NCBI GenBank assembly: GCA_013166775.1
Contig: JABLTJ010000008.1
Span: forward strand, 32,001 to 96,000
Direction of reading: 5' to 3'
DNA: 64,000 nt
Origin: Promethearchaeati archaeon
GTDB lineage: Archaea; Asgardarchaeota; Heimdallarchaeia; Heimdallarchaeales; Heimdallarchaeaceae
Both the position numbers and the translations under genes were made by a program. Of this stretch, positions 2,365 to 19,655 are shown piece by piece (position 1 is the first letter of the stretch; each line of letters opens with the position of its first letter). The notes under the pieces were generated by a model, which saw only the letters and a program-made list of their open reading frames with translations, was not told the DNA's origin and did not search any database.

Positions 2365-4026
2365 TTATTCGTAGAGTTGTACTAAACGATCGATTACAAT
2401 ATCACTTCTATATTCAGGTAAGAGCATTGGAGCATAGCGTTTTTCTTTCAACCCTAAAGAATCTAGTGTCAAGGTATTTTTTCTAACATGGTCTAAAGAT
2501 AATTTTCCTACTTTGACCTTATTTATCTCTTTAGCCGCTTCTATACCTGCACGACGACCAAAAACATTGATTTCGAGGAGTGAATTACCCATAAGACGAT
2601 TCTTACCGTGAACCCCTCCTGAAACTTCTCCTGCAATCATCAGTCCAGGAATAGAACTATGACACCTTTCATCATGTAAAACTCCACCATTTTGATAATG
2701 GAGTGTTGGATAAATTAGAATTGGATCCACAGTCATATCTATACCAAAGCGTTGGAACATACGGTCCATTGCCGCGAGATTTTTCTTTATGGTTCCTTTC
2801 CCTCTGATTTCCTCAATTAAAGGAGAATCTAACCATACTCCTCTCATACCTGTAGGAGATTCGATGTAATTATCTGTATTATTACAACATCTAATAATTG
2901 CAGAAGCTTCAACGTCTCTAGGTTCCAATGGATAACAAACTTGCTCTCCGTTTCTTCCTAATACTTGAGCTCCTAATCCTCTAACCTTTTCAGTAATTAG
3001 AAGTCCAACGATTTGCTCTGGATATGCTGCTCCAGTAGGATGGAATTGGGTTGATTCAAGATTCCTTAGTTTTGCGTTAGCTCTATAAGCCATTAGTACT
3101 CCATCCATTGTCGCACCATAATGATTTGTTGTTGGAAATCCTGCAACGTGAAGTCTTCCAAATCCTCCGGTTGCCATAATAGTAGTTTTCGCTCTTACAA
3201 CGAAATATTGTTTTGTTTCAAGATGATAAAGAATAGCACCTGCAACTCTACCTGTTTCATCAGTTAACAATTCTATTGCGGGAGTGAACTCTAGTACTGG
3301 GATGTTAAGATTTCTAAATTCATCTCTTACAACTCTAAAGATTTCTAAACCTGTATAATCCTTTGAACTATGCATTCTAAATCTGGATGTACCTCCACCA
3401 GAAAGTACCATGAAATTCCCGTTTTCATCTAAATCATACATTACACCAAGATCTTTGTGCCATTTTAGAATTGTTGGCGCGTCACTAACTAGAGCTTTTG
3501 CTAATTCTGGAATATTATCAAAATGACCACCACCAACAGCATCAAGATAATGAATCAAAGGAGAATCCTCAGGCCTATCTGCAATTTGAATTCCTCCTTG
3601 TGCCATTACTGTGTTAGCATCACCGTGTCTTAGTTTACTACTAACAAGAATGTCTTCAGCAGGTACTCCTGAGTAATTAGCCCATATTGCAGCAGCAGTG
3701 CCAGCACCTCCAGCACCTATAATTAGAACTCCCACATCATAATCGATTTTTGAAAGATCAATTTCATCAGGATTGATAATCGGGTAAGATTCAAGAATAT
3801 TTGCAATTTCTTCAGGAACTATATCACCCTTGTTTTCTCCATATAGAAGAGCCCTTTTTACATCTGTTTTGTAGTCTGGATGGTTTTCTTTGAGAACCTT
3901 GTCACGTTCTTCCATTGTCATGTGAGGAAATGCTTCATTAATACGCTTGCTTCTAGTTTTATTGACATTTTCAATCGATTTTCTCATTTCTTCTGTATAT
4001 CCACCTATTAGTTTCATTTTTTGCAC
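2365..4026 (-). CDS. frdA: Soluble fumarate reductase/succinate dehydrogenase flavoprotein (TfrA/FrdA-like)
   Basis: GAGGAG FAD motif, MAQGGI, QFHPT, TE..RG, PRD, HYQNGG, HGKNRLMGNSL. Confidence 0.85.
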   Translation of the reverse strand: MQKMKLIGGYTEEMRKSIENVNKTRSKRINEAFPHMTMEERDKVLKENHPDYKTDVKRALLYGENKGDIVPEEIANILESYPIINPDEIDLSKIDYDVGVLIIGAGGAGTAAAIWANYSGVPAEDILVSSKLRHGDANTVMAQGGIQIADRPEDSPLIHYLDAVGGGHFDNIPELAKALVSDAPTILKWHKDLGVMYDLDENGNFMVLSGGGTSRFRMHSSKDYTGLEIFRVVRDEFRNLNIPVLEFTPAIELLTDETGRVAGAILYHLETKQYFVVRAKTTIMATGGFGRLHVAGFPTTNHYGATMDGVLMAYRANAKLRNLESTQFHPTGAAYPEQIVGLLITEKVRGLGAQVLGRNGEQVCYPLEPRDVEASAIIRCCNNTDNYIESPTGMRGVWLDSPLIEEIRGKGTIKKNLAAMDRMFQRFGIDMTVDPILIYPTLHYQNGGVLHDERCHSSIPGLMIAGEVSGGVHGKNRLMGNSLLEINVFGRRAGIEAAKEINKVKVGKLSLDHVRKNTLTLDSLGLKEKRYAPMLLPEYRSDIVIDRLVQLYE

Positions 4027-4030
4027 CTCT

Positions 4031-4747
4031 TCAATTTGTCTCCTTATCTCTATTCTTGTATTTCTCTTCTAGTTCATCTTTTGATAAAGAGAATAATTCT
4101 TTGAATCCATCTTCATAAATTCCATCATCAATTTCCTTAATCCTCTCACCGAGATAAGAAGGTGTTTTCATTATGTATCTTCCATAGAGTCTTCTGACTA
4201 ACTGTGCTACATGGTACTGTGGTATCTCTGCAGGACATCGTATAACACACAGACCGCAGCTTACACAGTCGAAGCTTTCCTCAGCTGCTTTGTCAATTTG
4301 ACCTTGAAGACTGTGTTGAATATAATCCATTACTTTGATATCTTGCGGACATACTTTACTACAAGCATTGCAACTTAGACATCTAGCTACTTCCGGGAAG
4401 TAACGAAGAACTGCATTAGCAGATGCGACTAAATTATTGATATCATATACAGGTCTATCTGCTGGTACGAATGGTAATTGTGTTAGAAACATCCCCTCTT
4501 CAACCATGGTTTGACAAGCAAGTGCTGTGTAGATGTGGAAGTCACCTTCCTTTCTATAAACTGTGGAACATGCTCCACAGAAACCTGCTCTACATCCTGA
4601 ACCTCTTGTAAACTTATAGCCTACAAATTCCATAGCTTTCATTATAGTTAATGTTGCTGGAACCTCATAGACTTGCCCCATTATGTATATCTTAACTTTA
4701 TAATTTTCTTCTTTCTCGTTTTCTGTTATAGTTTTTATTTTAGACAT
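4031..4747 (-). CDS. Fumarate reductase Fe-S subunit (2Fe-2S plus 2x4Fe-4S), FrdB/TfrB N-terminal-like
   Basis: CRAGFCGAC...LAC 2Fe-2S motif; CLSCNACSKVCP and CVSCGLCVIRCP; adjacent to the flavoprotein. Confidence 0.8.
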   Translation of the reverse strand: MSKIKTITENEKEENYKVKIYIMGQVYEVPATLTIMKAMEFVGYKFTRGSGCRAGFCGACSTVYRKEGDFHIYTALACQTMVEEGMFLTQLPFVPADRPVYDINNLVASANAVLRYFPEVARCLSCNACSKVCPQDIKVMDYIQHSLQGQIDKAAEESFDCVSCGLCVIRCPAEIPQYHVAQLVRRLYGRYIMKTPSYLGERIKEIDDGIYEDGFKELFSLSKDELEEKYKNRDKETN

Positions 4748-4756
4748 TTTAATCCT

Positions 4757-5656
4757 CTACAACAATTTTAACTCCTCTAATAGAATTCTAGGATCAATTT
4801 CATGATCCTCAAAATGGTTAATCTCCAATGATTCACCAAAGGCTAATGCCATTAGTTGACTGAAATAAAACACAGGTAAAGAATCTTTTCTTCCTGTTTT
4901 TTCATCTATTACTTTTTGTTGCTGATCTATATTATAAGCACATAAAGGACATGCTACTGCAAGTGCATTAGCTCCTCGTACTCTTGCTGCTTCAACAATT
5001 TTCTCTACTTGACCTGCAACTATATCTTCCTGATCCACTATATGATATGATCCACAACAATACTTGAATAATGGAGAGAAAATAGCTTCTGCTCCAAGGC
5101 TTTCCATTAAGTCTTCAAGAACTGTTGGCATTTCTATATCATCAATTTTTGCTTTTTCTGGATGCAATAACATACATCCATAATATGGAGATACTTTTAA
5201 TCCTTCTAACGGTTTAACAACATTACTCCTTATTTGTTCAAAACCAATGCTATCTCTTAACACTTCAAGAAAGTGTTTTACTTCCATGTCAATTGAATAA
5301 GTTTCATTATCTTCTTCTAGTTGAAAGTTTATTGTTTCTAAATCATCAGGATTTTCCTTGACTTCTTCATTAACAATTTTCAAAGTACTATTACACATTG
5401 AACAAAGAGTAACGACATGGTTTGATGTGTCTTTTAGATCCTCCAAATGATTTTTAGAACGAGCTAATACTCTTACTGGAGCAATACGTTTCATCAAATT
5501 ATCTGTGGTCATTGTATGAACAGTCCCACAACAATTCCAGTTTGGGATTTCAACAAGTTCTGAATTTAGTTTTTTACTCACAGCAATAGCTGTTTCCTCA
5601 AATCCTTTCGCGTTAGTTTTCAAGTTACAGCCTGGAAAGTAGGAATATTGTACCAT
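4757..5656 (-). CDS. hdrB: Heterodisulfide reductase subunit B (two CCG domains)
   Basis: YFPGC, WNCCG, CSMC, YYGC, YCCG, ACPLC. Confidence 0.9.
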   Translation of the reverse strand: MVQYSYFPGCNLKTNAKGFEETAIAVSKKLNSELVEIPNWNCCGTVHTMTTDNLMKRIAPVRVLARSKNHLEDLKDTSNHVVTLCSMCNSTLKIVNEEVKENPDDLETINFQLEEDNETYSIDMEVKHFLEVLRDSIGFEQIRSNVVKPLEGLKVSPYYGCMLLHPEKAKIDDIEMPTVLEDLMESLGAEAIFSPLFKYCCGSYHIVDQEDIVAGQVEKIVEAARVRGANALAVACPLCAYNIDQQQKVIDEKTGRKDSLPVFYFSQLMALAFGESLEINHFEDHEIDPRILLEELKLL

Positions 5657-5662: not shown

Positions 5663-6073
5663 TCACCCTGTTTTTTTGCGAAAACTTCCAACCAGTGCTA
5701 TGTTGGGAAGCTTATTTAATACATCCTTAGGAATATCAGCTATTTTCATTTTTTCAGGTTCTTCTCTCAAGATATATTCACGTACAGCCTCCATTAGAGC
5801 TGCCACATCTATTTCACGAGGACAACGTATTGTGCAAGTGAGACAACTTGCACATATCCAATGTGTATTTGCTTTGAGAACTTTTTCCTTTTGTCCCATC
5901 TGAATGAAATGAATAAGTTGGTTAACTGTTTTATCCATTTTATTACTGAATGCACATCCCGCAGAACATTTACCACATTGATAGCAGCTATAGATATTCT
6001 GACCTGAAATTTCCTGTATTTTCTCTATGAAGTCTTTTTCTTCTTGTCCGAATTTAATATATTCATAAGACAT
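5663..6073 (-). CDS. hdrC: Heterodisulfide reductase subunit C
   Basis: CYQCGKCSAGC and WICASCLTCTIRCP. Confidence 0.9.
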   Translation of the reverse strand: MSYEYIKFGQEEKDFIEKIQEISGQNIYSCYQCGKCSAGCAFSNKMDKTVNQLIHFIQMGQKEKVLKANTHWICASCLTCTIRCPREIDVAALMEAVREYILREEPEKMKIADIPKDVLNKLPNIALVGSFRKKTG

Positions 6074-6557
6074 TGGTTTTTATCTCCTCTTTTGTTTTTT
6101 GGAGAATAACATTATACACTTGCTTAACGATTTCATCAAACTTACTTTTTAGTTCTTTTGATAGCTCATCATTAAATTCCATTACATTTATTATTTCTAT
6201 ACCAAGAATAATAATATCTTCTGGTATGTCATCATGTACTTGTTTACAAAATTCTAAAGCTGTGAAGAAATCCATATTATGATAATCTGAAATATGCAAA
6301 GCACTTGCAAAATCATCCGGTTTAAGTTCTACAACAGTTCCTTTTTGATAATTTCTTGTTTGAATTGAATCAACAAGAATAATTTTGTCGTAACCTTTGA
6401 ACAACTCTACAAGTCCAATCCCCCCTACTGAAACATCTCCAATAACTTCAACACTACTTGGAAGAGAAAGTGTCTTTTGAATGAAGTCGACAACTTTGAT
6501 TCCTACCCCATCATCTCCAACTATAGGGTTTCCTAAACCAATCAAAGCTATTTTCAT
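6063..6557 (-). CDS. Hydrogenase maturation protease
   Basis: IGLGNPIVGDDGVG motif, ILVDS, HNM; lies in an operon with a NiFe large subunit. Confidence 0.9.
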   Translation of the reverse strand: MKIALIGLGNPIVGDDGVGIKVVDFIQKTLSLPSSVEVIGDVSVGGIGLVELFKGYDKIILVDSIQTRNYQKGTVVELKPDDFASALHISDYHNMDFFTALEFCKQVHDDIPEDIIILGIEIINVMEFNDELSKELKSKFDEIVKQVYNVILQKTKEEIKTNVL

Positions 6558-6610: not shown

Positions 6611-8578
6611 TTATTCATCTGCTAAAGCCTTTATTAAGGATAAAATTTGGCTATCTGTATAACCAAGTTGATCTATGGCTCCGTTCAAACAGGTTGCAGC
6701 ACATGTTCCACAACCTTTGCAGACTGCTGCATTTACATCAGCTATTTCGAAAGTATACCCATACCTATCTATTGCTTTCAATTCGATTGCACCATAAGGA
6801 CATGAATCTACACACATGCCACATCCACGACAAAGTACATCATTTACTTTAGCGATAGTTGCTTCAACTTCTAGTTCTTTTTGAGCTAAGATATTAATAG
6901 ACCTAATAGCTGCTCTTCCAGCATGAGATACAACATCAGGAATATCCTTTGGACCAGAAACTGTACCTGCGATATAAACTCCAGATATTGAAGTTTCAAC
7001 AGGTTTAAGCTTAGGATGAGCTTCTTTAACAAATCCTGACATGTCTCTAGAAAGTTTAAGCAGATTGGAAATTTCTTTAGTACCCTCACTTGGTTGAATA
7101 CCAGTTGCCAAAACTACCATATCTGCATGCATTTCTATTGTTTCAGCTGTTAAAGTATTAACTCCCTTGATAAGTATTCGATCTCCATCTTGTAAAACTT
7201 CTGAAACTTTACCTCTGATGAAAATCACATTCTCTTCTTCAGCTGCTCTTTTGTAGAATTCCTCATAATCCTTCCCACCTGTTCTAATATCTATATAGAA
7301 ATTCACTGCTAAACCACTATGCACATGATGTTTGTATTGAAGAGCATGTTTAGTTGCGTACATACAACAGATCTTTGAACAATAAGAGAGATTTTTAGCA
7401 GGATCTCTAGATCCTGCACAGTGAATAAAAATAACTGTTTGAGGTATCCTTCCATCTGAAGGTCTTCTCACCAATCCAGCTGTAGGTCCATTTGCTGCTA
7501 AGATTCGTTCAAACTCTAAACCAGAAATGACATCTTGAATAGTGCCATAGCCATACTCTCCAATATTCTCTATTGGATATGTTTCATATCCTGTTGCAAC
7601 AACTATTGCCCCAAATTCATCTTCAATAATTTCCTCTCTCATGTCAAAATCAATAGCTTCTGGTCCACATACGTCTCTACATTTAGAGCAAATCAATGGT
7701 TCGATTCCTAGACAATTATCAGGATTGATAATGTATGATGCTGGAACTGCTTGAGGATTAGCAATATAGATAGCTTTTCTTGGAGAAAGATTTTCATTAT
7801 ATTCATCATGCACAATTACAGGACATACTGGAACACAATCATCACATAAAGTGCATTTATCTTCAATTACATATCTAGGATTTCTCTTTATTTTTACTTT
7901 GAAATTTCCAATGTAACCATCAACTTGTTTTACTTCACTATTTGCATAGAGTGTGATATTAGGATGACGTCCCACATCAACCATTTTGGGGCTCAAAATA
8001 CACTGGGAACAGTCCAAAGTTGGGAAGGTTTTGTCTAATTGAGCCATCTTTCCTCCAATTGTAGATTTCTTCTCAACAAGAGTAACTTGAAAACCAGAAT
8101 TTGCAATGTCTAGAGCTGCTTGTATTCCAGCTATTCCTCCTCCGATGACAAGAGCTTTTGATATAACTCCAACCTTTTTTCGATCTAGAGGTTCCATTAG
8201 CTCTGATCGCATAACAGCTCCTTTTACTAGAGATACTGCTTTATCTGTTCCTTTATCTTTGTCAGCATGAACCCAAGAACATTGCTCTCGAATGTTTACC
8301 ATTTCCAGACAATATGGGTTTAATCCTTTATCTTCTAGCACGGCACGAAATGTTGGTTCATGCATACTAGGAGAACAAGCTGCTACTACAACTTTATCTA
8401 AACCAAATTCTTCTATATCCTGTCTGATTAATTCTTGTCCTGGATCTGAGCATTTGTATTTGTAGACACGACTTACTGCTACATTTGGTAATAGTTTAAC
8501 ACTATCTGCTACTTCTTCTGTATCTACTGTGTCTGCAATGTTGCTTCCACATTCACATACATATACTCCAATTTTCAT
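6611..8578 (-). CDS. hdrA: Heterodisulfide reductase subunit A (copy 2)
   Basis: VYVCECGSNI, GGGIAG, DKTFPTLDC, CSKICCMY, C-terminal ferredoxin domain. Confidence 0.95.
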   Translation of the reverse strand: MKIGVYVCECGSNIADTVDTEEVADSVKLLPNVAVSRVYKYKCSDPGQELIRQDIEEFGLDKVVVAACSPSMHEPTFRAVLEDKGLNPYCLEMVNIREQCSWVHADKDKGTDKAVSLVKGAVMRSELMEPLDRKKVGVISKALVIGGGIAGIQAALDIANSGFQVTLVEKKSTIGGKMAQLDKTFPTLDCSQCILSPKMVDVGRHPNITLYANSEVKQVDGYIGNFKVKIKRNPRYVIEDKCTLCDDCVPVCPVIVHDEYNENLSPRKAIYIANPQAVPASYIINPDNCLGIEPLICSKCRDVCGPEAIDFDMREEIIEDEFGAIVVATGYETYPIENIGEYGYGTIQDVISGLEFERILAANGPTAGLVRRPSDGRIPQTVIFIHCAGSRDPAKNLSYCSKICCMYATKHALQYKHHVHSGLAVNFYIDIRTGGKDYEEFYKRAAEEENVIFIRGKVSEVLQDGDRILIKGVNTLTAETIEMHADMVVLATGIQPSEGTKEISNLLKLSRDMSGFVKEAHPKLKPVETSISGVYIAGTVSGPKDIPDVVSHAGRAAIRSINILAQKELEVEATIAKVNDVLCRGCGMCVDSCPYGAIELKAIDRYGYTFEIADVNAAVCKGCGTCAATCLNGAIDQLGYTDSQILSLIKALADE

Positions 8579-8592: not shown

Positions 8593-9429
8593 CTATATAT
8601 CTCCTTGAAGTTCCTTTAATTGATCATAAGAAAATACTGGGCCATCTTTGCAAACGTAAAGATTACCAATATTACATCTCCCACAAATGCCTATCCCACA
8701 TTTCATCCTCATTTCTAATGTGGTGTAAATTTGCTCCTCCTTGAATCCTAATTTCAGAAGATTCTGTATAACATAATGGATCATTATTGGAGGACCACAA
8801 GTTATTGCAATTGCATTTTCGGGTGCTGGATTAACTTCTAGAAGATTATCAGGAACAAAACCAACATATTTTTCCCAATGTTCTTCGTCAACATCAATTG
8901 AGAGATGCGCTTTAACATCATTTCTTTTTTCTAATTCAACAAATTCATCTTTATAACAAAGGTCTGCACTTGTTCGTGCTCCATAAATAATATCGATATT
9001 TCCATAATCTTCACGATTATCTAGTATGTAATTGATAACTGATCGTAATGGTGCTTGACCGATACCTCCCCCAATGAAAATTAGATTCCTTTTCTTCCAC
9101 CCTTCTACATCAAAGTTGTTACCATAGGGTCCTCTGACTCCGAGTGTATCCCCTTTCTCTAATTTGTGTAAAGCTGAGGTAACTTTACCGTGTTTCATTA
9201 CACTGACTTCAATGTAGTCCTTTTGTGTTGGTGAAGAGGAAATTGCGAACATACATTCTCCTGAACCAAAGAGACTAATCATTACACACTGTCCTGGGAT
9301 GAAACTGAAATTCTTCTTCTTATCATCTTGAAATGCTAGTCTGAAGGTTTTGATAGCTCTGTTCCCTTCAACTTCCTCTTTTACTCCTTCTATAATTGCT
9401 AAAGAAGGTAAATATGGATTCGCTTTCAT
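8593..9429 (-). CDS. flxA: FAD/NAD(P)-binding oxidoreductase (FlxA/sulfhydrogenase gamma-like)
   Basis: NPYLP start, RGPYGN, GGGIG, CGPPIM, MKCGIGICGRC...CKDGP. Confidence 0.8.
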   Translation of the reverse strand: MKANPYLPSLAIIEGVKEEVEGNRAIKTFRLAFQDDKKKNFSFIPGQCVMISLFGSGECMFAISSSPTQKDYIEVSVMKHGKVTSALHKLEKGDTLGVRGPYGNNFDVEGWKKRNLIFIGGGIGQAPLRSVINYILDNREDYGNIDIIYGARTSADLCYKDEFVELEKRNDVKAHLSIDVDEEHWEKYVGFVPDNLLEVNPAPENAIAITCGPPIMIHYVIQNLLKLGFKEEQIYTTLEMRMKCGIGICGRCNIGNLYVCKDGPVFSYDQLKELQGDI

Positions 9430-10451
9430 TCTTTTACCTCCCCTATCTTATTAATAATCTCAATAATATCTATATTTGCAGAACAATATTCTATGCATCG
9501 GCTACAGCCGGTACAACCAAATACTTCAGTGTTTTTTGGAAAATAGTTAAACTTGTGGTACACTCTATTTCGTACTCTATTCATTCTAGCAGGTCGAGGA
9601 TTATGCCCTGATGCATGATGTGTATATTCAGGATACATGCAGGAATCCCATACACGAATACGAGCTCCCTTGTTTAATGTACTCTCATCTTGCATATCAA
9701 AACAATGACATGTTGGGCAGAGATATGTACAGGTTCCACATCCAATACATTTTCTTGCAGATTCATACCAAATTGGATGATCAAACATTCCGTCTAATTT
9801 TTCCACGATTCCAGTAAGTTTCATAGTACGTTTTATTTTTCCTATAGCTTCTCTTTCTACTTTATCTCGAGATTTCTGATCCTCACCAGAAGCTGCATCA
9901 AAAAGAGTTTTGTGATCTTCTAAGAACTTCTTTCCAATTTCAGAGTTCCCTTCAATATAATACTTATAACCTAGATCTGTGAACAAAATATCAACGTATT
10001 CAATTGAAGCAGGACTATCATCAAATGAAGTGCAGAAACATGCAGGTCCTGGATTATTACAGCTCAATCCTATCAGCACACTATTTCTTCTTCTTGCTGA
10101 ATAATATGGATCTTCAAAATCTCCAATGAAAACAGGATCCAGAAGAGCAAAAGCTTTGGCATCGCAAGTTCTGATAGCATAGATTACAATTTTTTCATTT
10201 TCTTCTGGTATTTTTTCAACGTTCCCCTTTTTTCCTGGCGTGAAGTGGAATAATGTTTCAGTTTGCTTGAATATTATAGATTTTGGAGGTACTCTGGTAT
10301 TTACATAAGATGTGTCTATCTCTGATGCTTTTTCTACTTCCTTGAACAATGAAAACCCATTTTCTTTAACAGGAGCAAAGAGCTTATTCTTTGCTATAAT
10401 CTGAGTAAATAGCTCTGGAAGTTTTTCCTTAGAAATTATTGCATTTTCCAT
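9426..10451 (-). CDS. flxB: 4Fe-4S protein (FlxB/AsrA/sulfhydrogenase beta-like)
   Basis: RTCD, CFCTS, CIGCGTCTYLCPTCHCF, RVWDSC, CTGCSRC. Confidence 0.8.
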   Translation of the reverse strand: MENAIISKEKLPELFTQIIAKNKLFAPVKENGFSLFKEVEKASEIDTSYVNTRVPPKSIIFKQTETLFHFTPGKKGNVEKIPEENEKIVIYAIRTCDAKAFALLDPVFIGDFEDPYYSARRRNSVLIGLSCNNPGPACFCTSFDDSPASIEYVDILFTDLGYKYYIEGNSEIGKKFLEDHKTLFDAASGEDQKSRDKVEREAIGKIKRTMKLTGIVEKLDGMFDHPIWYESARKCIGCGTCTYLCPTCHCFDMQDESTLNKGARIRVWDSCMYPEYTHHASGHNPRPARMNRVRNRVYHKFNYFPKNTEVFGCTGCSRCIEYCSANIDIIEIINKIGEVKE

Positions 10452-11444: not shown

Positions 11445-11863
11445 TCATTCTTCCTCCTAACCTGTTTCATTGGGCCTAATTTCCTAATATCTTCAGTAAC
11501 TTCTTCAATGACTTGTGCAAATTTTCTTCCTTCTGCTGCAGAAACCCATGTCATTCTGACTCTATCTGGTTCAATTCCTAAGAACTCAAGCAGTTTTTTC
11601 ATCATAGTAATTCTTCTTCTCGCTTGATAGTTTCCATGCTGATAATGACAATCCCCAGGATGACATCCTCCTATTAAAACTCCATCAGCTCCTTGTTGGA
11701 GAGCATTAACAACAAACATGGGGTTGACTCTGCCGGAACACATTACTCGAATAATTCTGATATTTGATGGATATTGAATTCTACTTGTTCCTGCCAAATC
11801 TGCGCCAGCATATGAACACCACGTGCATAGGAAGCCTATAATCTTAGGCTCGAAATCTTTCAT
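11438..11863 (-). CDS. mvhD: MvhD/FlxD 2Fe-2S adaptor subunit (copy 2)
   Basis: FLCTWCSYAGADLAG, MCSGRV, GCHPGDCHY. Confidence 0.9.
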   Translation of the reverse strand: MKDFEPKIIGFLCTWCSYAGADLAGTSRIQYPSNIRIIRVMCSGRVNPMFVVNALQQGADGVLIGGCHPGDCHYQHGNYQARRRITMMKKLLEFLGIEPDRVRMTWVSAAEGRKFAQVIEEVTEDIRKLGPMKQVRRKNEW

Positions 11864-11877: not shown

Positions 11878-13347
11878 TTATCTTTTAAGGACTTTGATTA
11901 ATTGTTTTTTATGATCATAAATCTCGACTTTTATCGGCATTTGTCCTGGCAAAGAGTGAGTTGCGCAAGCCAAACAGGGATCATAAGCCCTGAAAGCCAT
12001 CTCGATTTTATTCAGACCATCATCATTGTATTGTCCTTGTTTTACCATTTCCTGTGCTGCTTGTTTCACACTTAAGCAAATAGCTGCATTGTTATTTGTT
12101 GTCGCTACTATGATATTAGCTTTTCTCACTCTTGCATTATCATCGGTCTGATAATGGTGATATAGTGTTCCACGAGGTGCTTCAATTACTCCTACTCCCT
12201 CACCAGTAAATGCTCTTTTATCTACTTGGGTTCTACAATTTTCTGAGTACAATTCTGGTTCATCCGCTATTTCTATCATTCTTTCTCCACAATGGAGAAG
12301 CTCCACTAATCTTGCCCAATTGAATCCAAGTGTATGATGTGCTGGTTTACCTCCTAGTACTTGGAACATTTCTTCAAATGCTTCTTGTGCTAAGGGGGTA
12401 TTTATTTTATCTACAACGTTTAATCTTGCTAAAGAATTTACTCTGTACAATCCACTGTCAGGATTGGCTTCAAAACCTTTCCATCCTATTTTCTTGAGAT
12501 ATGGAAATTTTAAATAGGACCAAGGTTCAACATGTTCTGCTAAATGGTCTAGATAATCTTTTGCTTCATATTTAACAACTTCTTTTCCTTTACTATCAAT
12601 GATTCTAATGGTATCTGATGAATAAAAATCTAATTCATTATCTGGACCTACAACTGATTTGTAATAACTTTCCATCTTATAAGCATCAAGATTAATAAAT
12701 GACATCAAATCTTTGTTCTTGACTACAAGATCATTAAATACTTGCAATCCTAGCTTTCCAAATTCTACTGCTTCTTTACTCATCTGTAGGATTTGTTCAG
12801 CTTGCTCTTTGGTTAGGCTTTTACTTACTCCTCCAGGTATAACAGTTACTGGATGAGTGGCTTTCCCACCAATCATTGCTTGTATTTTCTGAGCATAACC
12901 TCGTATTTTGATCGCTTCTTTAGCAACATCAGGAAATGCTTGAAAGATGCCCAATATATTATGAGTACCTGGTTTAGTTTTTTCACCTAGAACAAAATCT
13001 GGTAGAGCAAATGCGTAAAAATGAAGTATGTGACTGTGAACATTATGTCCAAGAGCAAGCATCTCTCTTAGTAATTTTGCAGTTCTTGGAGGATCAACTC
13101 CATATATCTGATCTGCTGCTTTAGCTGGAGCTAAATGATGAGGGATTGGACATACACCACATATCCTAGGTGTAATCCGTAGTACTTCTTCTATAGGTCT
13201 TCCTAAAACAAATCTTTCAAAACCTCGAAGCTCTACAACTTGATAATAAGCATCTTTTACATTCCCTTCATCATTAAGTACTATAGATATTTTTGCTAGT
13301 CCTTCTAATCTAGTTACAGGGTCAATTGTTACTACTTTGCTACTCAT
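11878..13347 (-). CDS. mvhA: Group 3c [NiFe]-hydrogenase large subunit
   Basis: TRLEG, L1 RICGVC, L2 RAYDPCLACATH followed by a cleavable tail. Confidence 0.92.
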   Translation of the reverse strand: MSSKVVTIDPVTRLEGLAKISIVLNDEGNVKDAYYQVVELRGFERFVLGRPIEEVLRITPRICGVCPIPHHLAPAKAADQIYGVDPPRTAKLLREMLALGHNVHSHILHFYAFALPDFVLGEKTKPGTHNILGIFQAFPDVAKEAIKIRGYAQKIQAMIGGKATHPVTVIPGGVSKSLTKEQAEQILQMSKEAVEFGKLGLQVFNDLVVKNKDLMSFINLDAYKMESYYKSVVGPDNELDFYSSDTIRIIDSKGKEVVKYEAKDYLDHLAEHVEPWSYLKFPYLKKIGWKGFEANPDSGLYRVNSLARLNVVDKINTPLAQEAFEEMFQVLGGKPAHHTLGFNWARLVELLHCGERMIEIADEPELYSENCRTQVDKRAFTGEGVGVIEAPRGTLYHHYQTDDNARVRKANIIVATTNNNAAICLSVKQAAQEMVKQGQYNDDGLNKIEMAFRAYDPCLACATHSLPGQMPIKVEIYDHKKQLIKVLKR

Positions 13348-14348
13348 ATTAACTCCTCCTCTGAATGAAGTTTATAAATTAATGATTTACCATACGTAAA
13401 TCGATAAAAAGTTCCCAAAGGATCTGGGATTTTGTCTACAATTTTATCCAATTCTTCCTCCGTCATTTCTTCCTCTATTTCAACTTCAAGGAGAGATGTT
13501 AATGCTGAAATCATTTTCAGTCCATGATCTTTAACCTTATCTGTTGGCCCCAGACATCCTCTACAACCAACATTCATTTTGGTACACAGACCATCACATC
13601 CAGCTCTTGTTGCAGGCCCTAAACAGAGAATGCCTTGAGGTAGCAGACATAAATCTGGATCCATCTCATCAACCTCTTGAGGTGAAATGAACTCTTTAAA
13701 TGAAATCTTTTCAGGTTTGGTTCTACCACATTCTTCACACAAAGTTTTGGTTCCTGCAATTACTGAACCCTTTGGAGGAAGTTTTCCTGTATTAGCATAT
13801 AGCTTCAGTACTTCAACTACTTGCTCAATCAGTGGTACCATTGGAGGACATCCGGGAACAAAATAATCAACATCGATTACTTCTTCTAAAGCATCAGCAT
13901 TTTCTAATATACCTGGTAATGTTAGTTCAACATCATTTATTTTTACAGATGTAAGTGGTACAGTATTTTCTGGATTATCCATTGAAGGTACATCTTTGTA
14001 CACAAGATCAAACATGTCCTGCTCAAATGGCATATTTGCTAAACTTGGAATACCACCAAAATTAGCACACGCACCAAACGCAACAACAACTTTGGATTTC
14101 TGGCGCAAAATTTTTGCGATTTTTGCATCTTCTGTTGTTCTTATTGCCCCATGATAAATTCCAACATCTACTTCTTTATCTTTCAATTTCTTCAAATCAT
14201 CTAACTTGAAATCCATTGCTGTTGGCCAGAATTTGAATTCAACAAGATCAAAAACCTCTAGTATCTTTTCATTTAAATCAAGGATTGCTACATCGCAACC
14301 TGCACAAGTTGCTCCAAGAGCTATCGCTAGGTTAATCTTCTTCATCAT
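13344..14348 (-). CDS. mvhG: Group 3c [NiFe]-hydrogenase small subunit
   Basis: CAGC, GACA..GG, PGCPP, CEEC, CLGPATRAGC...CRGC. Confidence 0.9.
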   Translation of the reverse strand: MMKKINLAIALGATCAGCDVAILDLNEKILEVFDLVEFKFWPTAMDFKLDDLKKLKDKEVDVGIYHGAIRTTEDAKIAKILRQKSKVVVAFGACANFGGIPSLANMPFEQDMFDLVYKDVPSMDNPENTVPLTSVKINDVELTLPGILENADALEEVIDVDYFVPGCPPMVPLIEQVVEVLKLYANTGKLPPKGSVIAGTKTLCEECGRTKPEKISFKEFISPQEVDEMDPDLCLLPQGILCLGPATRAGCDGLCTKMNVGCRGCLGPTDKVKDHGLKMISALTSLLEVEIEEEMTEEELDKIVDKIPDPLGTFYRFTYGKSLIYKLHSEEELI

Positions 14349-14794
14349 GAATCTCCTCCTTTACCATTCTTACCATAAGGAGGAAGTTTCTTTAAATCCT
14401 CAACCATTTCTGTTGTAATCTTAGCAAATTTAGCTCCTTCTGTAGCTGATATCCATGTAATCCTAAATCTCTTTGGATTTACTCCAACTTGCTTGAGAAG
14501 TCTTGAAAGTAAAGCCATCCGTCTGAATGTTTTGTAATTCCCTGTTTTATAATGACAATCTCCAAAATGACACCCTGTTATGAGTACTCCATCTGCACCT
14601 TCTAGAAAAGCTTCCACAACATGCTGAGGATCTATTCTACTAGAACAATTAACCATAATAGGTAGAACATTTGTAGGATAATGTAATCTGGAAGTACCTG
14701 CTAAATCTGCACCTTTTCCAGAACACCATCTACATAAGAATAACACAACATTAGGATTTGAATTTAGTTCAGTAATTTGTGTAGTTTTGCTCAT
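14345..14794 (-). CDS. mvhD: MvhD 2Fe-2S adaptor subunit (copy 1)
   Basis: FLCRWCS..ADLAG, NCSSRI, GCHFGDCHY. Confidence 0.9.
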   Translation of the reverse strand: MSKTTQITELNSNPNVVLFLCRWCSGKGADLAGTSRLHYPTNVLPIMVNCSSRIDPQHVVEAFLEGADGVLITGCHFGDCHYKTGNYKTFRRMALLSRLLKQVGVNPKRFRITWISATEGAKFAKITTEMVEDLKKLPPYGKNGKGGDS

Positions 14795-14798: not shown

Positions 14799-16751
14799 TC
14801 ACACCCTCAAAAGTGCCTTTATGCTAGCACTTATACTCTCGTAAGTAGAATTTCTTAATTCAATGCTTCCTGAAGGACAAGCTGCAGCACAACTCCCGCA
14901 TCCTTCACATAATGCTTCATTTACAAGCACTTTGTTCTGATTTTCATCATAGTAGATAGCTCCATATGGGCAAACATGAATGCAAGTATGACAAATTCCA
15001 CAAGTAAGATCATCTATTTCTGCTATGACTGGATCTCTCTCCAAGAAATCAGAAGATAATATAGTTTCAGCTTTAGCAGCTGCTCCTGAAGCTTGAGCAA
15101 CAGCTTCAGGAATATCTTTGGGGCCTGATGCTGTACCTGCTACAAAAACACCTGAGATAACTGTTTCAACCGGCTTTAGTTTTGGATGAGCTTCTTTTAC
15201 GAAACCTTTACTATCACATGAAAGTTTCAGGATATTGGAAATTTCTTGTGTTCCTTCGCTTGGTAGTAATCCTGTTGCTAGAACTACCATATCTGCATGT
15301 AATTCAATTGATTCAGAAGTAAGTGTATTCACTCCCCTAATCAGTACTTTCTCTCCATCTTGTAATAATTCTGATACCTTTCCCCTAATGTAAATTACAT
15401 TTTCTTCTTCAGCAGCTCTTTTGTAGAACTCCTCATAATCCTTACCTGCAGTTCTGACATCAATATAGAAATTTATAGCAACTCCATCATGGACCAGATG
15501 TTTATACTGCATAGCATGTTTTGTTGCGTACATGCAACAAATTTTCGAACAATATGGAAGGTGTTTTGCTGGATCTCGAGAACCTGCACAATGAATAAAA
15601 ACAACTATCTTTGGAATATTCCCATCAGAAGGTCTTCGAATCACACCTTGTGTAGGTCCATTTGCAGAAAGTAATCTCTCAAATTCCAAACCTGAGACAA
15701 CGTTATGAATGTTGCCATACCCATATTCTCCTATTCTTTCATATGGATAAACCGAATAACCTGTTGCAACAACAATCGCTCCAAATTCCTCCTCAATAAA
15801 TTCTGCTTTCATATCAAAATCTATAGCCTTGGGATCACAGACTTCTTTACATTTTGCGCAAATTAGTGGATCGATTCCAAGACATGTACTAGGATCTATA
15901 ATATATGAAGCTGGGACAGCTTGAGGAAATGCTATATAGATTGCCTTTCGTGGAGACAATCCTGCATTATATTCATCATGAACTATAACTGGACAAACAT
16001 GAACACAATCGTCACATATTGTACACTTTTCTTCAATTACGTAACGAGGTTTCTTCTTAATTTTTACCTTGAAGCTTCCAACATAACCATCAACATTTTC
16101 TACTTCGCTGTTAGTTAGTAATTGAATATTTGGATGACGACCTACAGCAACCATTTTTGGCGTTAATATACATTGAGAGCAATCCAAGGTTGGGAATGTT
16201 TCTGCAAGTTGAGCCATTTTTCCTCCGATTGTTGAATCCTTCTCTACTAGTGTAACCTGATATCCTGCATCTGCAATATCTAATGCCGCTTGTATTCCTG
16301 CTATCCCTCCACCAATAACTAGTGCTTTTCTTGTAACAGGAACATTATAGGGTTCCAATGCTTGATTTCTTTTTACCTTTTCAATTGTTGATTCAATTAT
16401 CTTAATTGTTTTTTCTGTAGCTTTTTCTTTGTTTTCATGAACCCAAGAACACTGTTCTCTTATATTAGCCATTTCTGTAAGATATTGATTCAATCCCGCT
16501 TCTTTAGTAACAATTCTGAAAGTGTCCTCATGCATATCTTTACTACAAGCTGCTACAACTACTCGATCTAAATCATGTTTCTTGATTGCTTCCTTGATAA
16601 TAGTTTGACCTGGTTCTGAGCACATATACATACTATCTTCTACATGTACCACATCCTCATAGTCTTTGATGCTCTCTAAGACTTTCTTAATATCAACAGT
16701 GTGAGCAATATTTCTCCCACAGTGACAAACAAATACACCAACTTTACTCAT
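14799..16751 (-). CDS. hdrA: Heterodisulfide reductase subunit A (copy 1); likely start MSKVGVFVCHCG at 16751
   Basis: VCHCGRNI, GGGIAG, AETFPTLDC, CSKICCMY, C-terminal ferredoxin domain. Confidence 0.95.
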   Translation of the reverse strand: MSKVGVFVCHCGRNIAHTVDIKKVLESIKDYEDVVHVEDSMYMCSEPGQTIIKEAIKKHDLDRVVVAACSKDMHEDTFRIVTKEAGLNQYLTEMANIREQCSWVHENKEKATEKTIKIIESTIEKVKRNQALEPYNVPVTRKALVIGGGIAGIQAALDIADAGYQVTLVEKDSTIGGKMAQLAETFPTLDCSQCILTPKMVAVGRHPNIQLLTNSEVENVDGYVGSFKVKIKKKPRYVIEEKCTICDDCVHVCPVIVHDEYNAGLSPRKAIYIAFPQAVPASYIIDPSTCLGIDPLICAKCKEVCDPKAIDFDMKAEFIEEEFGAIVVATGYSVYPYERIGEYGYGNIHNVVSGLEFERLLSANGPTQGVIRRPSDGNIPKIVVFIHCAGSRDPAKHLPYCSKICCMYATKHAMQYKHLVHDGVAINFYIDVRTAGKDYEEFYKRAAEEENVIYIRGKVSELLQDGEKVLIRGVNTLTSESIELHADMVVLATGLLPSEGTQEISNILKLSCDSKGFVKEAHPKLKPVETVISGVFVAGTASGPKDIPEAVAQASGAAAKAETILSSDFLERDPVIAEIDDLTCGICHTCIHVCPYGAIYYDENQNKVLVNEALCEGCGSCAAACPSGSIELRNSTYESISASIKALLRV

Positions 16752-16755
16752 AGTT

Positions 16756-17313
16756 TTATCCTTCTTGCTTGTATTCTTTTCCTTTCTTAAATGCAATAAG
16801 ATTTTTCTCAATGTATCGAGCTTTAATCTTTTGTTTCATAACCGTAACAAGAGCTTCTTCGGATACTATGTCTTTTGCATTAGCACATACATATCCTAAC
16901 ATTGCTATATTAGCAAAGATTTTACTACCAAGAGTTTCTGCAATTTTTGTTGCAGGGATTTTAAAAATCTGTTTAGCTTTATTGGCATTATCATCCAAGT
17001 GTACTAGATTCTCTTCAACAAATAAAATTCCACCTTTCTTAAGTTTAGGAATATATTTGTTATATGCTTCTTCGGATAATACTACAAAATAATCTAGTTC
17101 TGTAGCTTTAGGAAAATCAATCTCTTCAGTATCTATTACGACATCTGCGCTACTAGCACCTCCTCTGCTTTCAGGACCATAGCTTTGTGTCATTACTGAG
17201 TTCTTTCCTTTTTCATACAAAGCAACAGCTTCACCTACTAATCTTCCCATAAGACCTATACCTTGACCCCCAAATCCTGCGAAACGTACTTCTACTCTAG
17301 CCATAATAATCAC
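16756..17313 (-). CDS. korC: 2-oxoacid:ferredoxin oxidoreductase gamma subunit
   Basis: FAGFGGQG, QSYGPESRGGAS, NIAMLG. Confidence 0.85.
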   Translation of the reverse strand: MIIMARVEVRFAGFGGQGIGLMGRLVGEAVALYEKGKNSVMTQSYGPESRGGASSADVVIDTEEIDFPKATELDYFVVLSEEAYNKYIPKLKKGGILFVEENLVHLDDNANKAKQIFKIPATKIAETLGSKIFANIAMLGYVCANAKDIVSEEALVTVMKQKIKARYIEKNLIAFKKGKEYKQEG

Positions 17314-18179
17314 TCCTTACTAACTGAAGCTCTTCCCCTCTTTTGGAGATCTAAAAGATGATCTGTTAATGTCGGTCTACCTTCAATATCTACAAATTTT
17401 CCAACAATCAGTGGTCCATCTTTTTCTATACCAACCTCTCGTGTGTCAGCTCCGTGTTGTAGTTCTGTGTGATCCTTATAGAATTCAAGTATCATCTTTC
17501 CTTCTGCTAATTGATTCCGACGTCCATAGGTTGTGGGGCAACTACCAAGAACCTCAACAAATGAGAATCCTTTCTTAGAAAGAGCTTCTACGAGAGAATC
17601 TTTCATCCTTCTTACATCCAATGCAGTCCACCTTGCAACATATACTGCTCCACAAGAGGTTGCTAAATCAGGTAAGTTAAATGGCTCTTCAACTGCACCA
17701 TAAGGGGCGGTGGTTTGAAATTGACCTATGTAAGAAGTGGGCCCAACTTGACCTCCAGTCATACCATAGTTAAAATTGTTTACACAAATAACAGTTATAT
17801 CTGCATTTCTTCTTGCAGCATGAATGAAATGATTCCCACCTATTGCAAAGAGATCTCCATCTCCTGAAATAACAATTACCTTTCGTTCAGGATCTGTTAT
17901 ACCTAATCCGATTGCAAATGGAATAGCTCTTCCATGTGTTGTATGAAAACTATCAAAGTTTAGATATCCTGATATTCTGCCTGTGCATCCAATTCCAGAT
18001 ACTACTGCAACTTTTTTTGGATCTAATCCTGCTGCAAGTATTGCATCTACTATAACAGTTGTTATCGAACCCAAACTACAACCTGGGCAGAAAATATGTG
18101 GAATCCTTCCTTTTCTCAAATAACCATCCAAAGGGTGTTCATGAGATTCAATTAACTCAATTTTTTCTTCTACCATCAT
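17310..18179 (-). CDS. korB: 2-oxoacid:ferredoxin oxidoreductase beta subunit (TPP-binding)
   Basis: FCPGC, SGIGC, TTHGRA, GDGD...NNFNYGMTGGQ, CPT. Confidence 0.9.
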   Translation of the reverse strand: MMVEEKIELIESHEHPLDGYLRKGRIPHIFCPGCSLGSITTVIVDAILAAGLDPKKVAVVSGIGCTGRISGYLNFDSFHTTHGRAIPFAIGLGITDPERKVIVISGDGDLFAIGGNHFIHAARRNADITVICVNNFNYGMTGGQVGPTSYIGQFQTTAPYGAVEEPFNLPDLATSCGAVYVARWTALDVRRMKDSLVEALSKKGFSFVEVLGSCPTTYGRRNQLAEGKMILEFYKDHTELQHGADTREVGIEKDGPLIVGKFVDIEGRPTLTDHLLDLQKRGRASVSKE

Positions 18180-19339
18180 TTACCCTTCTCTATTTCTTTT
18201 AAAATCTCTTCAGGAGTATGTATTGCTCCCCCTAGTTTGAAAATTCCTTTAACTTCAGTTTTACCATGAGACGATCTTTCGATTTCTCTAGTTATTTGTC
18301 CATAGTTTATTTCAGGAACAATAATTTTCTTCACTTGATCTGCTAGTAAATCTATTCTCTCATCAGGAAATGGCCAAACAGTTATTAACCTTAACAGACC
18401 TACTTTAATGCCTTTTTTCCTTGCTCTATTAACAGATCCCTTTGCAGCTCTTGCACTTGTTCCAAAGGAAATTAAAGCAATATCTGCATCATCCAATTTA
18501 TATTCTTCAGTTTTGATAATTTTCTTTTTGTTCTTTCGAATTTTGTCATTGATTCTTCTTACATTTTTTTCTTGTGCTTCAGCGGATATTTCAGGATAAC
18601 CTCTCTCATCATGAGTCAAACCTGTCATCATAACTCGATAACCATCACCTGCTATTGCCATCAGTGGTACAAGATCTTTCCCTGCTTTATATGGTAAATA
18701 TTCTTCTGGTGGTACTGTAGGCTTTTTTCTGTTCACAATTTTTATTTTCTCTTTAGCCGGAATTACAAGTTTTTCACTCATATGACCGATTGTTTCATCC
18801 ATAAGAAATGTAACAGGCAACCGATATTGTTCTGAAAAATTAAAAGCTGATATAACTAGATCGAAACTCTCTTGGACAGTACTTGGAGATATTACAATTG
18901 GTTCATAATCTCCATGTGAACCCCATTTTGTTTGCATGACATCTTGTTGTCCAACTAAAGTTGGTAATCCTGTTGAGGGACCACCTCTCTGCACATTCAC
19001 TATTACACAAGGTGTTTCAGTCATCATTCCTAAACCTATATTTTCTACCATTAAAGAATAGCCTGGTCCTGATGTAGCAGTCATACTTTTAGATCCTCCC
19101 CAAGATGCACCAAGAATACTTGCTATTGAGGCAATTTCATCTTCAAACTGGACAAAATGACCATTAATTTGAGGTAATCTTCTTGCCATATGTTCAGCAA
19201 TTTCAGAACTTGGAGTGATTGGATATCCTCCGAAGAACTTACATCCAGCAGCAAGTGAACCTTCTGCTACAGCAATGTTGCCAGTTACGAAATGTTTACC
19301 TGTCATAACTTCAAGCAATTCAGCTTCTTCTTTACTCAT
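18176..19339 (-). CDS. korA: 2-oxoacid (2-oxoglutarate-type):ferredoxin oxidoreductase alpha subunit; ATG at 19339
   Basis: [31 protein letters not shown]. Confidence 0.9.
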
Positions 19340-19655
19340 CTTCTTCACTTCCTTCTTCCTCTTCAGGAGCTACAACAAAAATCGCAAATTCTGGGCAAAT
19401 CAATTCACAAAAGTGACATTCAGCACAATCATCGAATGTTTTACCATCAATAAGTTTGGGTGGATGATATCCTTTTTCATTAATTTCACCTGATTTCTCA
19501 AGAATCTCTTCAGGGCAGTGAATAATACACCACTCACACTCTTTGCATCTTTCCTTAATTAAGAAAACCTGGGGGGCTTTACTTTTATATTTACTAATGT
19601 CAATAAAAGCAGGCCATTCCGGTTTTTTCCTTCGTCTATCTAGTGACGATTTCAT
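19332..19655 (-). CDS. korD: 2-oxoacid:ferredoxin oxidoreductase delta (ferredoxin) subunit
   Basis: [35 protein letters not shown]. Confidence 0.85.

Follow-up and report, generated by a model that had tools for sequence, protein, structure and literature searches.

The window analysed here is a 64,000-nt stretch of contig JABLTJ010000008.1 (positions 32,001–96,000 of the forward strand; GenBank assembly GCA_013166775.1) from a Promethearchaeati archaeon of the family Heimdallarchaeaceae. On its minus strand, from position 19655 down to 2365, lie 18 co-oriented genes, identified from the list of open reading frames (ORFs) and from Pfam and NCBIfam matches and transcribed in the order korDABC, hdrA1, mvhDGA, flxDCBA, hdrA2, a protease gene, hdrC, hdrB, frdB and frdA (Table 1). 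Its probable role is to power two reactions with H2 or NAD(P)H, the reduction of fumarate to succinate and the conversion of succinyl-CoA to 2-oxoglutarate. How organisms with a reverse tricarboxylic acid (rTCA) cycle pay for these two steps is the unresolved question that it addresses; the supply of ferredoxin in such organisms has explicitly been called unresolved (PMC10052474).

Organization of the operon

A first-pass annotation, made without database searches, had named the kor, hdr, mvh, flx and frd genes as co-oriented, and Pfam and NCBIfam bear this out; its count of 15 genes has to be raised to 18, which is also what its own list sums to. Adjacent genes overlap by 4–17 nt or are separated by 4–14 nt, in keeping with the overlaps or gaps of mostly under 15 nt first reported. 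The sole exception and largest gap, of 53 nt, sits just before the protease gene and holds a GAGGAG ribosome-binding site. The listed TTG start of hdrA1 (16811) lies too far upstream, and alignment with relatives moves it to an ATG at 16751 (MSKVGVFVCHCG), 4 nt past korC. In-frame stops in the high-scoring segment pairs of five relatives, considered as possible selenocysteine codons in HdrA, were rejected as such: they are stop codons of the upstream gene and appeared because the query began at the over-long TTG start.

The genes sucC and sucD, for the step between Frd and Kor, are confirmed at the 51–53 kb first given for them, on the minus strand, where they form a separate transcription unit (51125..53135) 31 kb away. 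As read from the sequence, all metal-binding and catalytic motifs in the operon products are intact.

Table 1. Features of the operon and its surroundings, in window positions and in order of operon transcription, followed by sucC and sucD.
Feature	Position	Strand	Assignment and basis
Arf/small-GTPase-family gene	19890-20540	+	Pfam Arf 1.1e-09
Candidate operon promoter	19701..19708	−	Archaeal TATA box (TTTATATA), read by eye, ~49 nt upstream of korD ATG
korD	19332..19655	−	Delta subunit, 107 aa, 2x[4Fe-4S]; two CxxCxxCxxxC motifs; best NCBIfam match OGOR_delta, 46.8 bits, below the 125-bit cut-off
korA	18176..19348	−	Alpha subunit; POR_N + PFOR_II; NF006412 572 bits, above the cut-off of 411
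korB	17310..18179	−	Thiamine pyrophosphate (TPP)-binding beta subunit; TPP_enzyme_C; best NCBIfam match 2-oxoglutarate ferredoxin oxidoreductase beta, 235 bits, below the cut-off of 364
korC	16756..17313	−	Gamma subunit; POR domain; NF006323 182 bits
hdrA1	14799..16751	−	Mvh-linked HdrA paralogue; methanogen HdrA 8rvu 4e-204, full length
mvhD	14345..14794	−	[2Fe-2S] adaptor; FlpD 2.8e-49; 5 Cys
mvhG	13344..14348	−	[NiFe]-hydrogenase small subunit; Oxidored_q6; VhuG 5e-52; 12 Cys, enough for three clusters
mvhA	11878..13347	−	[NiFe]-hydrogenase large subunit; VhuA 5e-124; nickel-iron CxxC motifs RICGVCPIPHH + DPCLACATH
flxD	11438..11863	−	Second MvhD-like adaptor; FlpD 1.8e-59; 5 Cys as in [2Fe-2S] adaptor
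flxC	10461..11444	−	FeS protein; weak FrhB_FdhB_C domain, 25.9 bits
flxB	9426..10451	−	Sulfhydrogenase-beta-like FeS protein; Fer4_22; ShyB 1e-66
flxA	8593..9429	−	FAD/NAD(P)-binding protein with [2Fe-2S]; NAD_binding_1, FAD_binding_6, DHODB_Fe-S_bind
hdrA2	6611..8578	−	Flx-linked HdrA paralogue; HdrA2 model 4e-244
Protease gene	6063..6557	−	[NiFe]-hydrogenase maturation endopeptidase; HycI; TIGR00072 98 bits, above the cut-off of 47
hdrC-like	5663..6073	−	2x[4Fe-4S], 136 aa (short); two CxxCxxCxxxC; QmoC N-terminus 4e-19, HdrC 2e-17, both below cut-offs
hdrB-like	4757..5656	−	Two CCG domains; CCG x2; HdrB 146 bits, SdhE 131 bits, both below cut-offs
frdB	4031..4747	−	SdhB-like; [2Fe-2S] motif and two full 4-Cys [4Fe-4S] motifs; all 12 Cys invariant in 29 homologues
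frdA	2365..4026	−	Fumarate reductase-type flavoprotein, 553 aa; FAD + capping domains; fold match E. coli FrdA
Candidate archaeal terminator	2331..2364	−	T-rich tract directly after frdA stop, read by eye
sucC	51993-53135	−	ATP-grasp_2 + Ligase_CoA
sucD	51125-51991	−	CoA_binding + Ligase_CoA

The HdrC-HdrB-FrdB core and the FrdA flavoprotein

An AlphaFold model of FrdA (predicted local distance difference test score, pLDDT, 83.9) has its best fold match in FrdA of the E. coli quinol:fumarate reductase (1kf6_A, E 1.9e-28). The residues for substrate binding and proton transfer are invariant in 31 homologues (H329 in the motif FHPT, T345/E346/R349, R370 in EPRD, H443 and R477), and the catalytic residues align with those of the canonical SdhA of the same genome. 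Where covalent flavoproteins have the histidine that binds flavin adenine dinucleotide (FAD), FrdA has Asn138, which is likewise invariant in the family (31 homologues). In E. coli FrdA, mutation of His44 leaves the flavin non-covalently bound, preserves fumarate reduction and abolishes succinate oxidation. Asn138 in this place argues for the reductive direction, that of fumarate reduction.

In the Frd, Sdh, TfrA and NadB models, the match of FrdA extends no further than the FAD and capping domains, every score being below cut-off (for TfrA, NF004900, 283 bits against 718 over model positions 7–418 of 546). Succ_DH_flav_C is absent, and there is a 95-aa N-terminal extension, which is a real family feature because several of its residues are invariant. 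The sub-threshold scores, the missing domain and the family-specific extension would suit a flavoprotein that is not a fumarate reductase at all, acting instead on another dicarboxylate or enoate in the manner of aspartate oxidase or urocanate reductase, with the Kor linkage denoting a different pathway. We consider this very improbable, given that every fumarate-binding and proton-transfer residue is invariant, that the partner is of SdhB type with a 2Fe-2S motif, that the linkage to kor recurs in several phyla, and that FrdABEF of Syntrophobacter fumaroxidans, probably a member of this family, increases with fumarate (PMC5947623).

Since FrdB has two full four-cysteine motifs, it is expected to hold two [4Fe-4S] clusters and no [3Fe-4S] cluster. 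Both CCG motifs of HdrB are complete (C10..C42C43..C85xxC88 and C161..C200C201..C236xxC239), with all 10 cysteines invariant in 29 archaeal and bacterial homologues. HdrB and HdrC miss their equivalog cut-offs (146 against 345 bits and 63 against 160 bits, respectively). FrdB (39.8 bits), HdrC (26.5) and HdrB (27.2) match successive segments of a single model, that of TfrB (NF004898, cut-off 385).

A co-fold of HdrB with FrdB scored 0.54, against 0.00 for the best of three controls, with a contact agreement across runs of at least 97% and a partner pLDDT of at least 77. It thus reaches a mark that 58 of 80 solved complexes and 2 of 110 mismatched pairs also reach; at scores of 0.60 or less, those that do so are only 7 of the 80 solved complexes, plus both passing mismatches. 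The predicted contact gives weak backing to a direct meeting of the two proteins.

Two input modules

HdrA1 and HdrA2 are 66% identical and have 28 cysteines each, in matching patterns. Besides the match listed in Table 1, HdrA1 aligns over its full length with a second solved methanogen HdrA (5odc, 6e-198); both paralogues fall short of the HdrA equivalog cut-off of 1100 bits (824 and 812, respectively). In the order hdrA1-mvhD-mvhG-mvhA, mvhD and hdrA1 are adjacent, as in group 3c MvhADG. MvhA ends in a 25-aa C-terminal tail of the type cut off by a maturation protease, and its best NCBIfam match, VhuA, at 414 bits against a cut-off of 800, is the sole evidence for group 3c type.

Near hdrA2 lie all four components of an Flx module, namely an FAD/NAD-binding protein with a 2Fe-2S motif, two FeS proteins and an MvhD-like protein. 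The donor to this module is uncertain among NADH, NADPH and F420H2 because of the weak FrhB_FdhB_C match in FlxC. The four-gene block recurs in 22 of 30 genomes from the family, and FlxC likewise in 22 of these 30; FlxC had no match in any of the 30 genomes searched from other families of the class.

The Kor module

All four subunits of a 2-oxoacid:ferredoxin oxidoreductase (OFOR) are encoded, with TPP and 2x[4Fe-4S] domains. KorA passes the generic 2-oxoacid alpha model only; the cut-offs specific for 2-oxoglutarate:ferredoxin oxidoreductase (OGOR) are missed by the alpha subunit (414 against 579 bits) as well as by the beta and delta subunits. Among structures in the PDB, KorA matches 1yd7 (6e-125), the 2-oxoglutarate synthase 8ys5 (2e-82), the OGOR 6n2n (5e-69) and the pyruvate:ferredoxin oxidoreductase (POR) 9bt4 (3e-14), and by these scores it is far nearer to solved OGORs than to POR; it is nearer to OGORs than to oxalate enzymes, too. 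Its substrate pair would be 2-oxoglutarate and succinyl-CoA. Five further OFOR loci lie elsewhere in the genome.

Synteny across archaea and bacteria

A scan with FrdA gave 80 loci, onto which the 18 operon proteins of the window were mapped. In the 66 with enough flank, frdB stands directly upstream of frdA in 65 and hdrC-hdrB in 55, so that the arrangement is not due to chance and hdrC-hdrB-frdB-frdA forms one evolutionary unit. The synteny survey proposed with the first-pass annotation has thus found this four-gene unit conserved, in archaea (Heimdallarchaeia, Njordarchaeales, Culexarchaeia, Methanomethylicia, Bathyarchaeia, Korarchaeia-like and other Thermoproteota) as well as in bacteria (Desulfobacterota, Cloacimonadota, Sumerlaeota, Caldisericota and others). 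The homologue in Culexarchaeia was annotated as TfrA by its authors (PMC9723716).

Loci with at least 8 kb of flank (n=44) contain hdrA in 28 cases, an MvhD-like gene in 27, kor in 14, mvhA in 11 and flxBA in 9. Interleaved kor genes occur in Bathyarchaeia, Sumerlaeota and Cloacimonadota. At two TACK loci (L033 and L036), hdrCB-frdBA-hdrA is inserted between korDAB and korC, and the order in Sumerlaeota and Cloacimonadota is korDABC-hdrCB-hdrA-mvhD-frdBA-mvhGA, followed at one Cloacimonadota locus (L057) by the protease gene, with 53–58% identity to FrdA, HdrA and KorA of the window. Genes interleaved so closely argue that Kor, Hdr and Frd are connected in function and possibly also physically. 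The core together with its linkage to hdrA, kor and either mvh or flx is present in Heimdallarchaeia and Njordarchaeales, in several TACK lineages and in several bacterial phyla, which marks it as a widespread enzyme type.

The unity of the core bears on how electrons would reach FrdA. The first-pass annotation had invoked a disulfide carrier and a thiol:fumarate reductase, that is, a loop of two enzymes in which HdrABC, with Mvh or Flx, would reduce a soluble or protein disulfide and a separate TfrAB-like enzyme (HdrB-FrdAB) would reoxidise the thiols. In its favour, HdrB keeps both CCG motifs, from which the thiol/disulfide site of HdrB and TfrB is formed; the genome has a second hdrCB-hdrA-mvhDGA cluster (contig C107), itself complete, that could be the disulfide reductase; and a DsrC-type carrier was named as an alternative by Rubin-Blum 2019 (PMC6315080). 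Such a loop is nevertheless unlikely: the operon has two HdrA and a single HdrBC, which is evolutionarily tied to FrdBA and travels with it; HdrC, the wire between HdrA and HdrB, belongs to the Frd core, whereas a plain Tfr needs no HdrC; and the operon holds no carrier gene. Profile searches for DsrC (PF04358) and for the coenzyme M (CoM) marker ComA (PF02679) found neither in the genome, which at 3.85 Mb is 88.7% complete, so that here and below absences are not proof. We therefore favour direct wiring from HdrB to FrdB over a free thiol, since one HdrBC serves two HdrA and HdrC sits within the Frd core, and since methanogen TfrB naturally fuses FrdB-like and CCG modules; the co-fold of HdrB and FrdB supports this weakly.

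Operon forms within the family

The closest loci come from metagenome-assembled genomes labelled Heimdallarchaeota, and locus mapping shows four operon forms within the family of the source genome. The commonest, in 12 genomes, has Flx only (korDABC-flxDCBA-hdrA2-hdrCB-frdBA). A second has Mvh only (korABC-hdrA1-mvhDGA-protease-hdrCB-frdBA; L016 and L010), a third has both hdrA genes without flx (korC-hdrA1-mvhDGA-hdrA2-protease-hdrCB-frdBA; L004 and L006), and a fourth has neither input module (korABC-hdrA2-protease-hdrCB-frdBA; L038). That L004, L006 and L038 still have hdrA2 and the hydrogenase protease gene suggests that modules of the operon were recently lost or reshuffled. The 18-gene fusion of Mvh and Flx was found in no other genome among about 60 relatives and the 80 loci.

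A maximum-likelihood tree puts the Mvh-linked HdrA1 sequences in one clade and the Flx-linked HdrA2 sequences in its sister clade, both inside one Heimdall clade (support 100/100). The two thus go back to a duplication within the lineage, each paralogue tracking its own input module.

Eight genomes of the family have, in addition, a separate locus of the form mvhGA-flxDCBA-(split HdrA)-protease-mvhD, without kor or frd (L094, L098, L100, L103, L107, L108, L109 and L111), in which the HdrA pieces lie ~4 kb apart and which adjoins a divergent group-3b-like hydBGDA cluster. The association of Mvh with Flx thus occurs in the absence of Kor and Frd as well.

Metabolic context in the genome

The search for the remaining rTCA enzymes and for electron carriers, which the first-pass annotation had also proposed, succeeded for the enzymes (ATP-citrate lyase, aconitase, isocitrate dehydrogenase and fumarase), with neither the carrier DsrC nor the CoM marker ComA found. 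One operon on another contig (C1:110-118.5 kb) encodes, in this order, isocitrate dehydrogenase, aconitase-type enzymes (split, 426 + 168 aa, and fused, 617 aa) and two subunits of ATP-citrate lyase, one like AclB (435 aa) and one like AclA (717 aa), the latter enzyme being the only Citrate_synt match in the genome. Class I fumarase genes, one beta and two paralogous alpha genes (292 aa each), lie 15–18 kb upstream of the Kor-Frd operon on the same contig (C76:12.9-18 kb); a prolyl oligopeptidase gene adjoins them. An Ldh_2-type dehydrogenase and malic enzyme are present, and no Ldh_1_C match was found in the genome. Judged by these matches, every step of the rTCA cycle has a candidate gene.

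A canonical sdhA (588 aa, with the covalent-FAD histidine in RSHS and with Succ_DH_flav_C) is followed by sdhB and a class II fumarase gene, fumC, on a further contig (C102:90.5-94.4 kb). The two enzymes thus seem to divide the work, SdhAB oxidising succinate and the Hdr-linked enzyme acting as the reductase. Membrane-anchor genes are not evident. A distance of ~2.3 kb, in which lie three unannotated plus-strand ORFs, separates the operon from the contig end, and the class II fumarase is in two ORFs (151 + 312 aa), perhaps through a frameshift or a natural split.

The second Hdr-Mvh cluster (C107:46.9-56.3 kb) has an HdrA that seems split around NuoE/NuoF-like genes. Its order is hdrC, hdrB, a fusion of the HdrA N-terminal part with a NuoE-like [2Fe-2S] domain (427 aa), a NuoF-like gene (638 aa), a gene for a NuoG-N-like/ferredoxin protein (591 aa), mvhD, mvhG and mvhA. 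A group-3b-like hydrogenase is encoded on contig C75.

Expression signals and neighbouring genes

The TATA box and the T-rich tract were called by eye, archaeal signals not being modelled by the sigma-70 promoter and terminator scanner. The box lies in the 234-nt spacer between korD and the Arf-family GTPase gene, which is divergent from the operon promoter region. Beyond the T-rich tract downstream of frdA lies a convergent gene.

Proposed mechanism

From the genes present, the intact motifs for cofactors and catalysis, the conserved synteny and the genomic context, we read the operon as coding for a cytoplasmic system of flavin-based electron bifurcation that has fumarate rather than a heterodisulfide as its high-potential acceptor, and we give this reading a probability of roughly 0.6. 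Electrons from H2 would enter through MvhAG and pass via MvhD to HdrA1, and those from NAD(P)H would enter through FlxABC and pass via FlxD to HdrA2. The HdrA flavin would split each electron pair. The downhill electron would travel from HdrC through HdrB and FrdB to the non-covalent FAD of FrdA, where fumarate would be reduced to succinate; the uphill electron would go to ferredoxin, or straight to KorD, for the carboxylation of succinyl-CoA to 2-oxoglutarate by Kor. SucCD would join the Frd and Kor reactions and, with ATP-citrate lyase, aconitase, isocitrate dehydrogenase and fumarase, the system would make up the reductive half of the rTCA cycle. We infer a physical complex, direct passage from HdrB to FrdB without a free thiol, the nature of the Flx donor, the Kor substrate and the direction of flux.

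Of the first-pass interpretation, fumarate as the sink of Hdr-based bifurcation and Kor as the low-potential consumer are thus retained, in view of the intact motifs, the asparagine in place of histidine, the linkage of kor, hdrA, mvh and flx with hdrCB-frdBA across phyla and the rTCA genes of the genome; the separate thiol loop is not. To our knowledge, fumarate-dependent bifurcation by Hdr has been proposed from gene clusters and never purified.

The relevant potentials are ~−500 mV for 2-oxoglutarate synthase, −414 mV for H2, −320 mV for NADH and ~+30 mV for fumarate/succinate. The last of these is also given in PMC5947623. On our own calculation from textbook potentials, the overall bifurcating reaction is downhill with either H2 or NADH, and its reverse needs H2 near 1 Pa.

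That reverse would be an oxidative confurcation, in which Kor oxidises 2-oxoglutarate (e.g. from glutamate) and the reduced ferredoxin, together with electrons from succinate, yields H2 or NADH, permitting syntrophic anaerobic succinate oxidation. The stoichiometry would suit it, as each 2-oxoglutarate should give a reduced ferredoxin pair together with a succinate, in the ratio of 1:1; a widespread reading of Asgard archaea is that they degrade amino acids in syntrophy and have an H2-evolving Mvh-Hdr (PMC7015854), and prolyl oligopeptidase genes are nearby. The energetics oppose it: the mean of ~−500 and +30 mV, by our calculation ~−235 mV, is uphill to NADH and, unless H2 is at or below ~1 Pa, to H2 as well. 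The covalent-FAD histidine is moreover invariably asparagine, a separate SdhAB bears that histidine, and ATP-citrate lyase is the sole citrate enzyme found. We hold confurcation, and the syntrophic succinate oxidation it would permit, to be quite unlikely.

Several points weigh against the bifurcating reading. By sequence comparison, all NCBIfam equivalog cut-offs for Hdr, Tfr and OGOR are missed, so that the substrates of the operon are not established; FrdA is without the C-terminal domain of all characterised Frd, Sdh and TfrA enzymes, and its N-terminal extension is uncharacterised. The backing from the HdrB-FrdB co-fold is weak. Many Desulfobacterota have the four-gene core alone, without hdrA, which means that HdrBC-FrdAB can work with other partners. 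Finally, searches of the 88.7% complete genome with PEPcase_2 and PYC_OADA gave no match (phosphoenolpyruvate carboxykinase was not searched for) and, with neither phosphoenolpyruvate carboxylase nor pyruvate carboxylase found, a complete autotrophic cycle is not shown.

A bolder version, which we regard as doubtful, has one megacomplex built on an HdrA1/HdrA2 heterodimer, taking both H2 and NAD(P)H and wired to FrdAB, via HdrC and HdrB, without free thiol and to Kor, via KorD, without free ferredoxin. If true, a single machine would turn two donor molecules, fumarate, succinyl-CoA and CO2 into succinate and 2-oxoglutarate, and such a machine would sit in a close archaeal relative of eukaryotes. 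The two-input operon is in any case a naturally occurring example in which one acceptor arm serves two HdrA paralogues. In Heimdallarchaeia, the system has a bearing on whether the eukaryote ancestor had relatives that consumed H2 and could run a reductive TCA cycle, and is relevant to hydrogen-based models of eukaryogenesis.

Comparison with known systems

The first-pass annotation knew of no characterised two-input arrangement of this kind in an Asgard archaeon. The fusion and its host do appear to be undescribed, as the full-text literature searched held no description of the operon in Asgard archaea (subscription papers, e.g. Spang 2019, being outside its coverage). The bifurcation concept itself is already published for bacteria (PMC6315080; PMC8542988; PMC11636981), and a 2026 survey (PMC13147460) repeats the idea of Hdr-fumarate bifurcation. 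What is new is the presence and diversity of the system in Heimdallarchaeia, the lineage-specific HdrA duplication and the fusion of both inputs in one operon.

Methanogen MvhAGD-HdrABC (PDB 5odc, 8rvu and 7bkb) shares with the Heimdall operon full-length HdrA homology (E 6e-198 to 4e-204), MvhD, MvhAG of group 3c type, an HdrC with 2x[4Fe-4S] and an HdrB with two CCG motifs. The methanogen acceptor is CoM-S-S-CoB, a heterodisulfide, whereas Heimdall HdrBC is divergent and genetically joined to FrdBA, its HdrC being ~50 aa shorter. TfrAB of Methanothermobacter, as cited in PMC8542988 and PMC6315080 (Heim 1998), is a soluble fumarate reductase that joins SdhB-like FeS and CCG modules and serves the reductive branch to 2-oxoglutarate, in line with our reading of the Heimdall operon. 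TfrB is one fused polypeptide without HdrC, whereas FrdB, HdrB and HdrC are separate in the Heimdall operon. FlxABCD-HdrABC of Desulfovibrio vulgaris, for which DsrC is the proposed acceptor according to the papers that cite it (Ramos 2015, cited in PMC5947623 and PMC6315080), likewise has four Flx-type genes beside hdrA (FAD/NAD-binding, two FeS and MvhD-like); the Heimdall order is D-C-B-A and, unlike in D. vulgaris as there described, no DsrC was found in the 88.7% complete genome.

Two further soluble fumarate reductases invite comparison. FrdABEF of Syntrophobacter fumaroxidans (Sfum_4092-4095) is a fumarate-induced, four-subunit cytoplasmic enzyme without a membrane anchor (PMC5947623); no hdrA, kor, mvh or flx genes lie close to it, and the Syntrophobacteraceae loci in our survey likewise have hdrC-hdrB-frdB-frdA by itself. 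It is probably of the same family and would then represent the four-gene core on its own. The fumarate reductase of Hydrogenobacter thermophilus, which is soluble, NADH-dependent and made up of five subunits (Miura 2008, summarised in PMC13147460), is reported there to be irreversible and to serve the rTCA cycle; its genes are scattered, the summary shows no bifurcation or Kor coupling for it, and the likeness is by description only.

The closest counterparts are bacterial gene clusters with one input each. The cluster of Ca. Celaenobacter (Cloacimonadota), read as belonging to an H2-driven rTCA cycle (Williams 2021; PMC8542988), is the H2-input version, with group 3c Mvh, Hdr, thiol:fumarate reductase and OGOR together; it differs in being without Flx, in having a single HdrA and in containing fumarase and SucCD. 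The NADH-input version occurs in tubeworm symbionts (Endoriftia and the Escarpia symbiont) and in Thioflavicoccus mobilis, where korABCD and tfrAB are interspersed with flxABCD-hdrABC and NADH was proposed to be bifurcated at HdrA to fumarate reductase and OGOR, directly or via ferredoxin/DsrC (Rubin-Blum 2019; PMC6315080); the symbiont cluster is co-expressed in an operon-like manner, tfrAB excepted (Mitchell 2024; PMC11636981). Compared by gene content, these clusters and the Heimdall operon share the interspersed kor, tfr/frd, flx and hdr genes and have ATP-citrate lyase, aconitase and isocitrate dehydrogenase in the genome. The bacterial clusters have NADH input only and are embedded with aclAB, pntAB and rnf, whereas the Heimdall operon is archaeal, has its ATP-citrate lyase elsewhere, and contains in addition an Mvh hydrogenase, for which it encodes a dedicated HdrA paralogue and a maturation protease.

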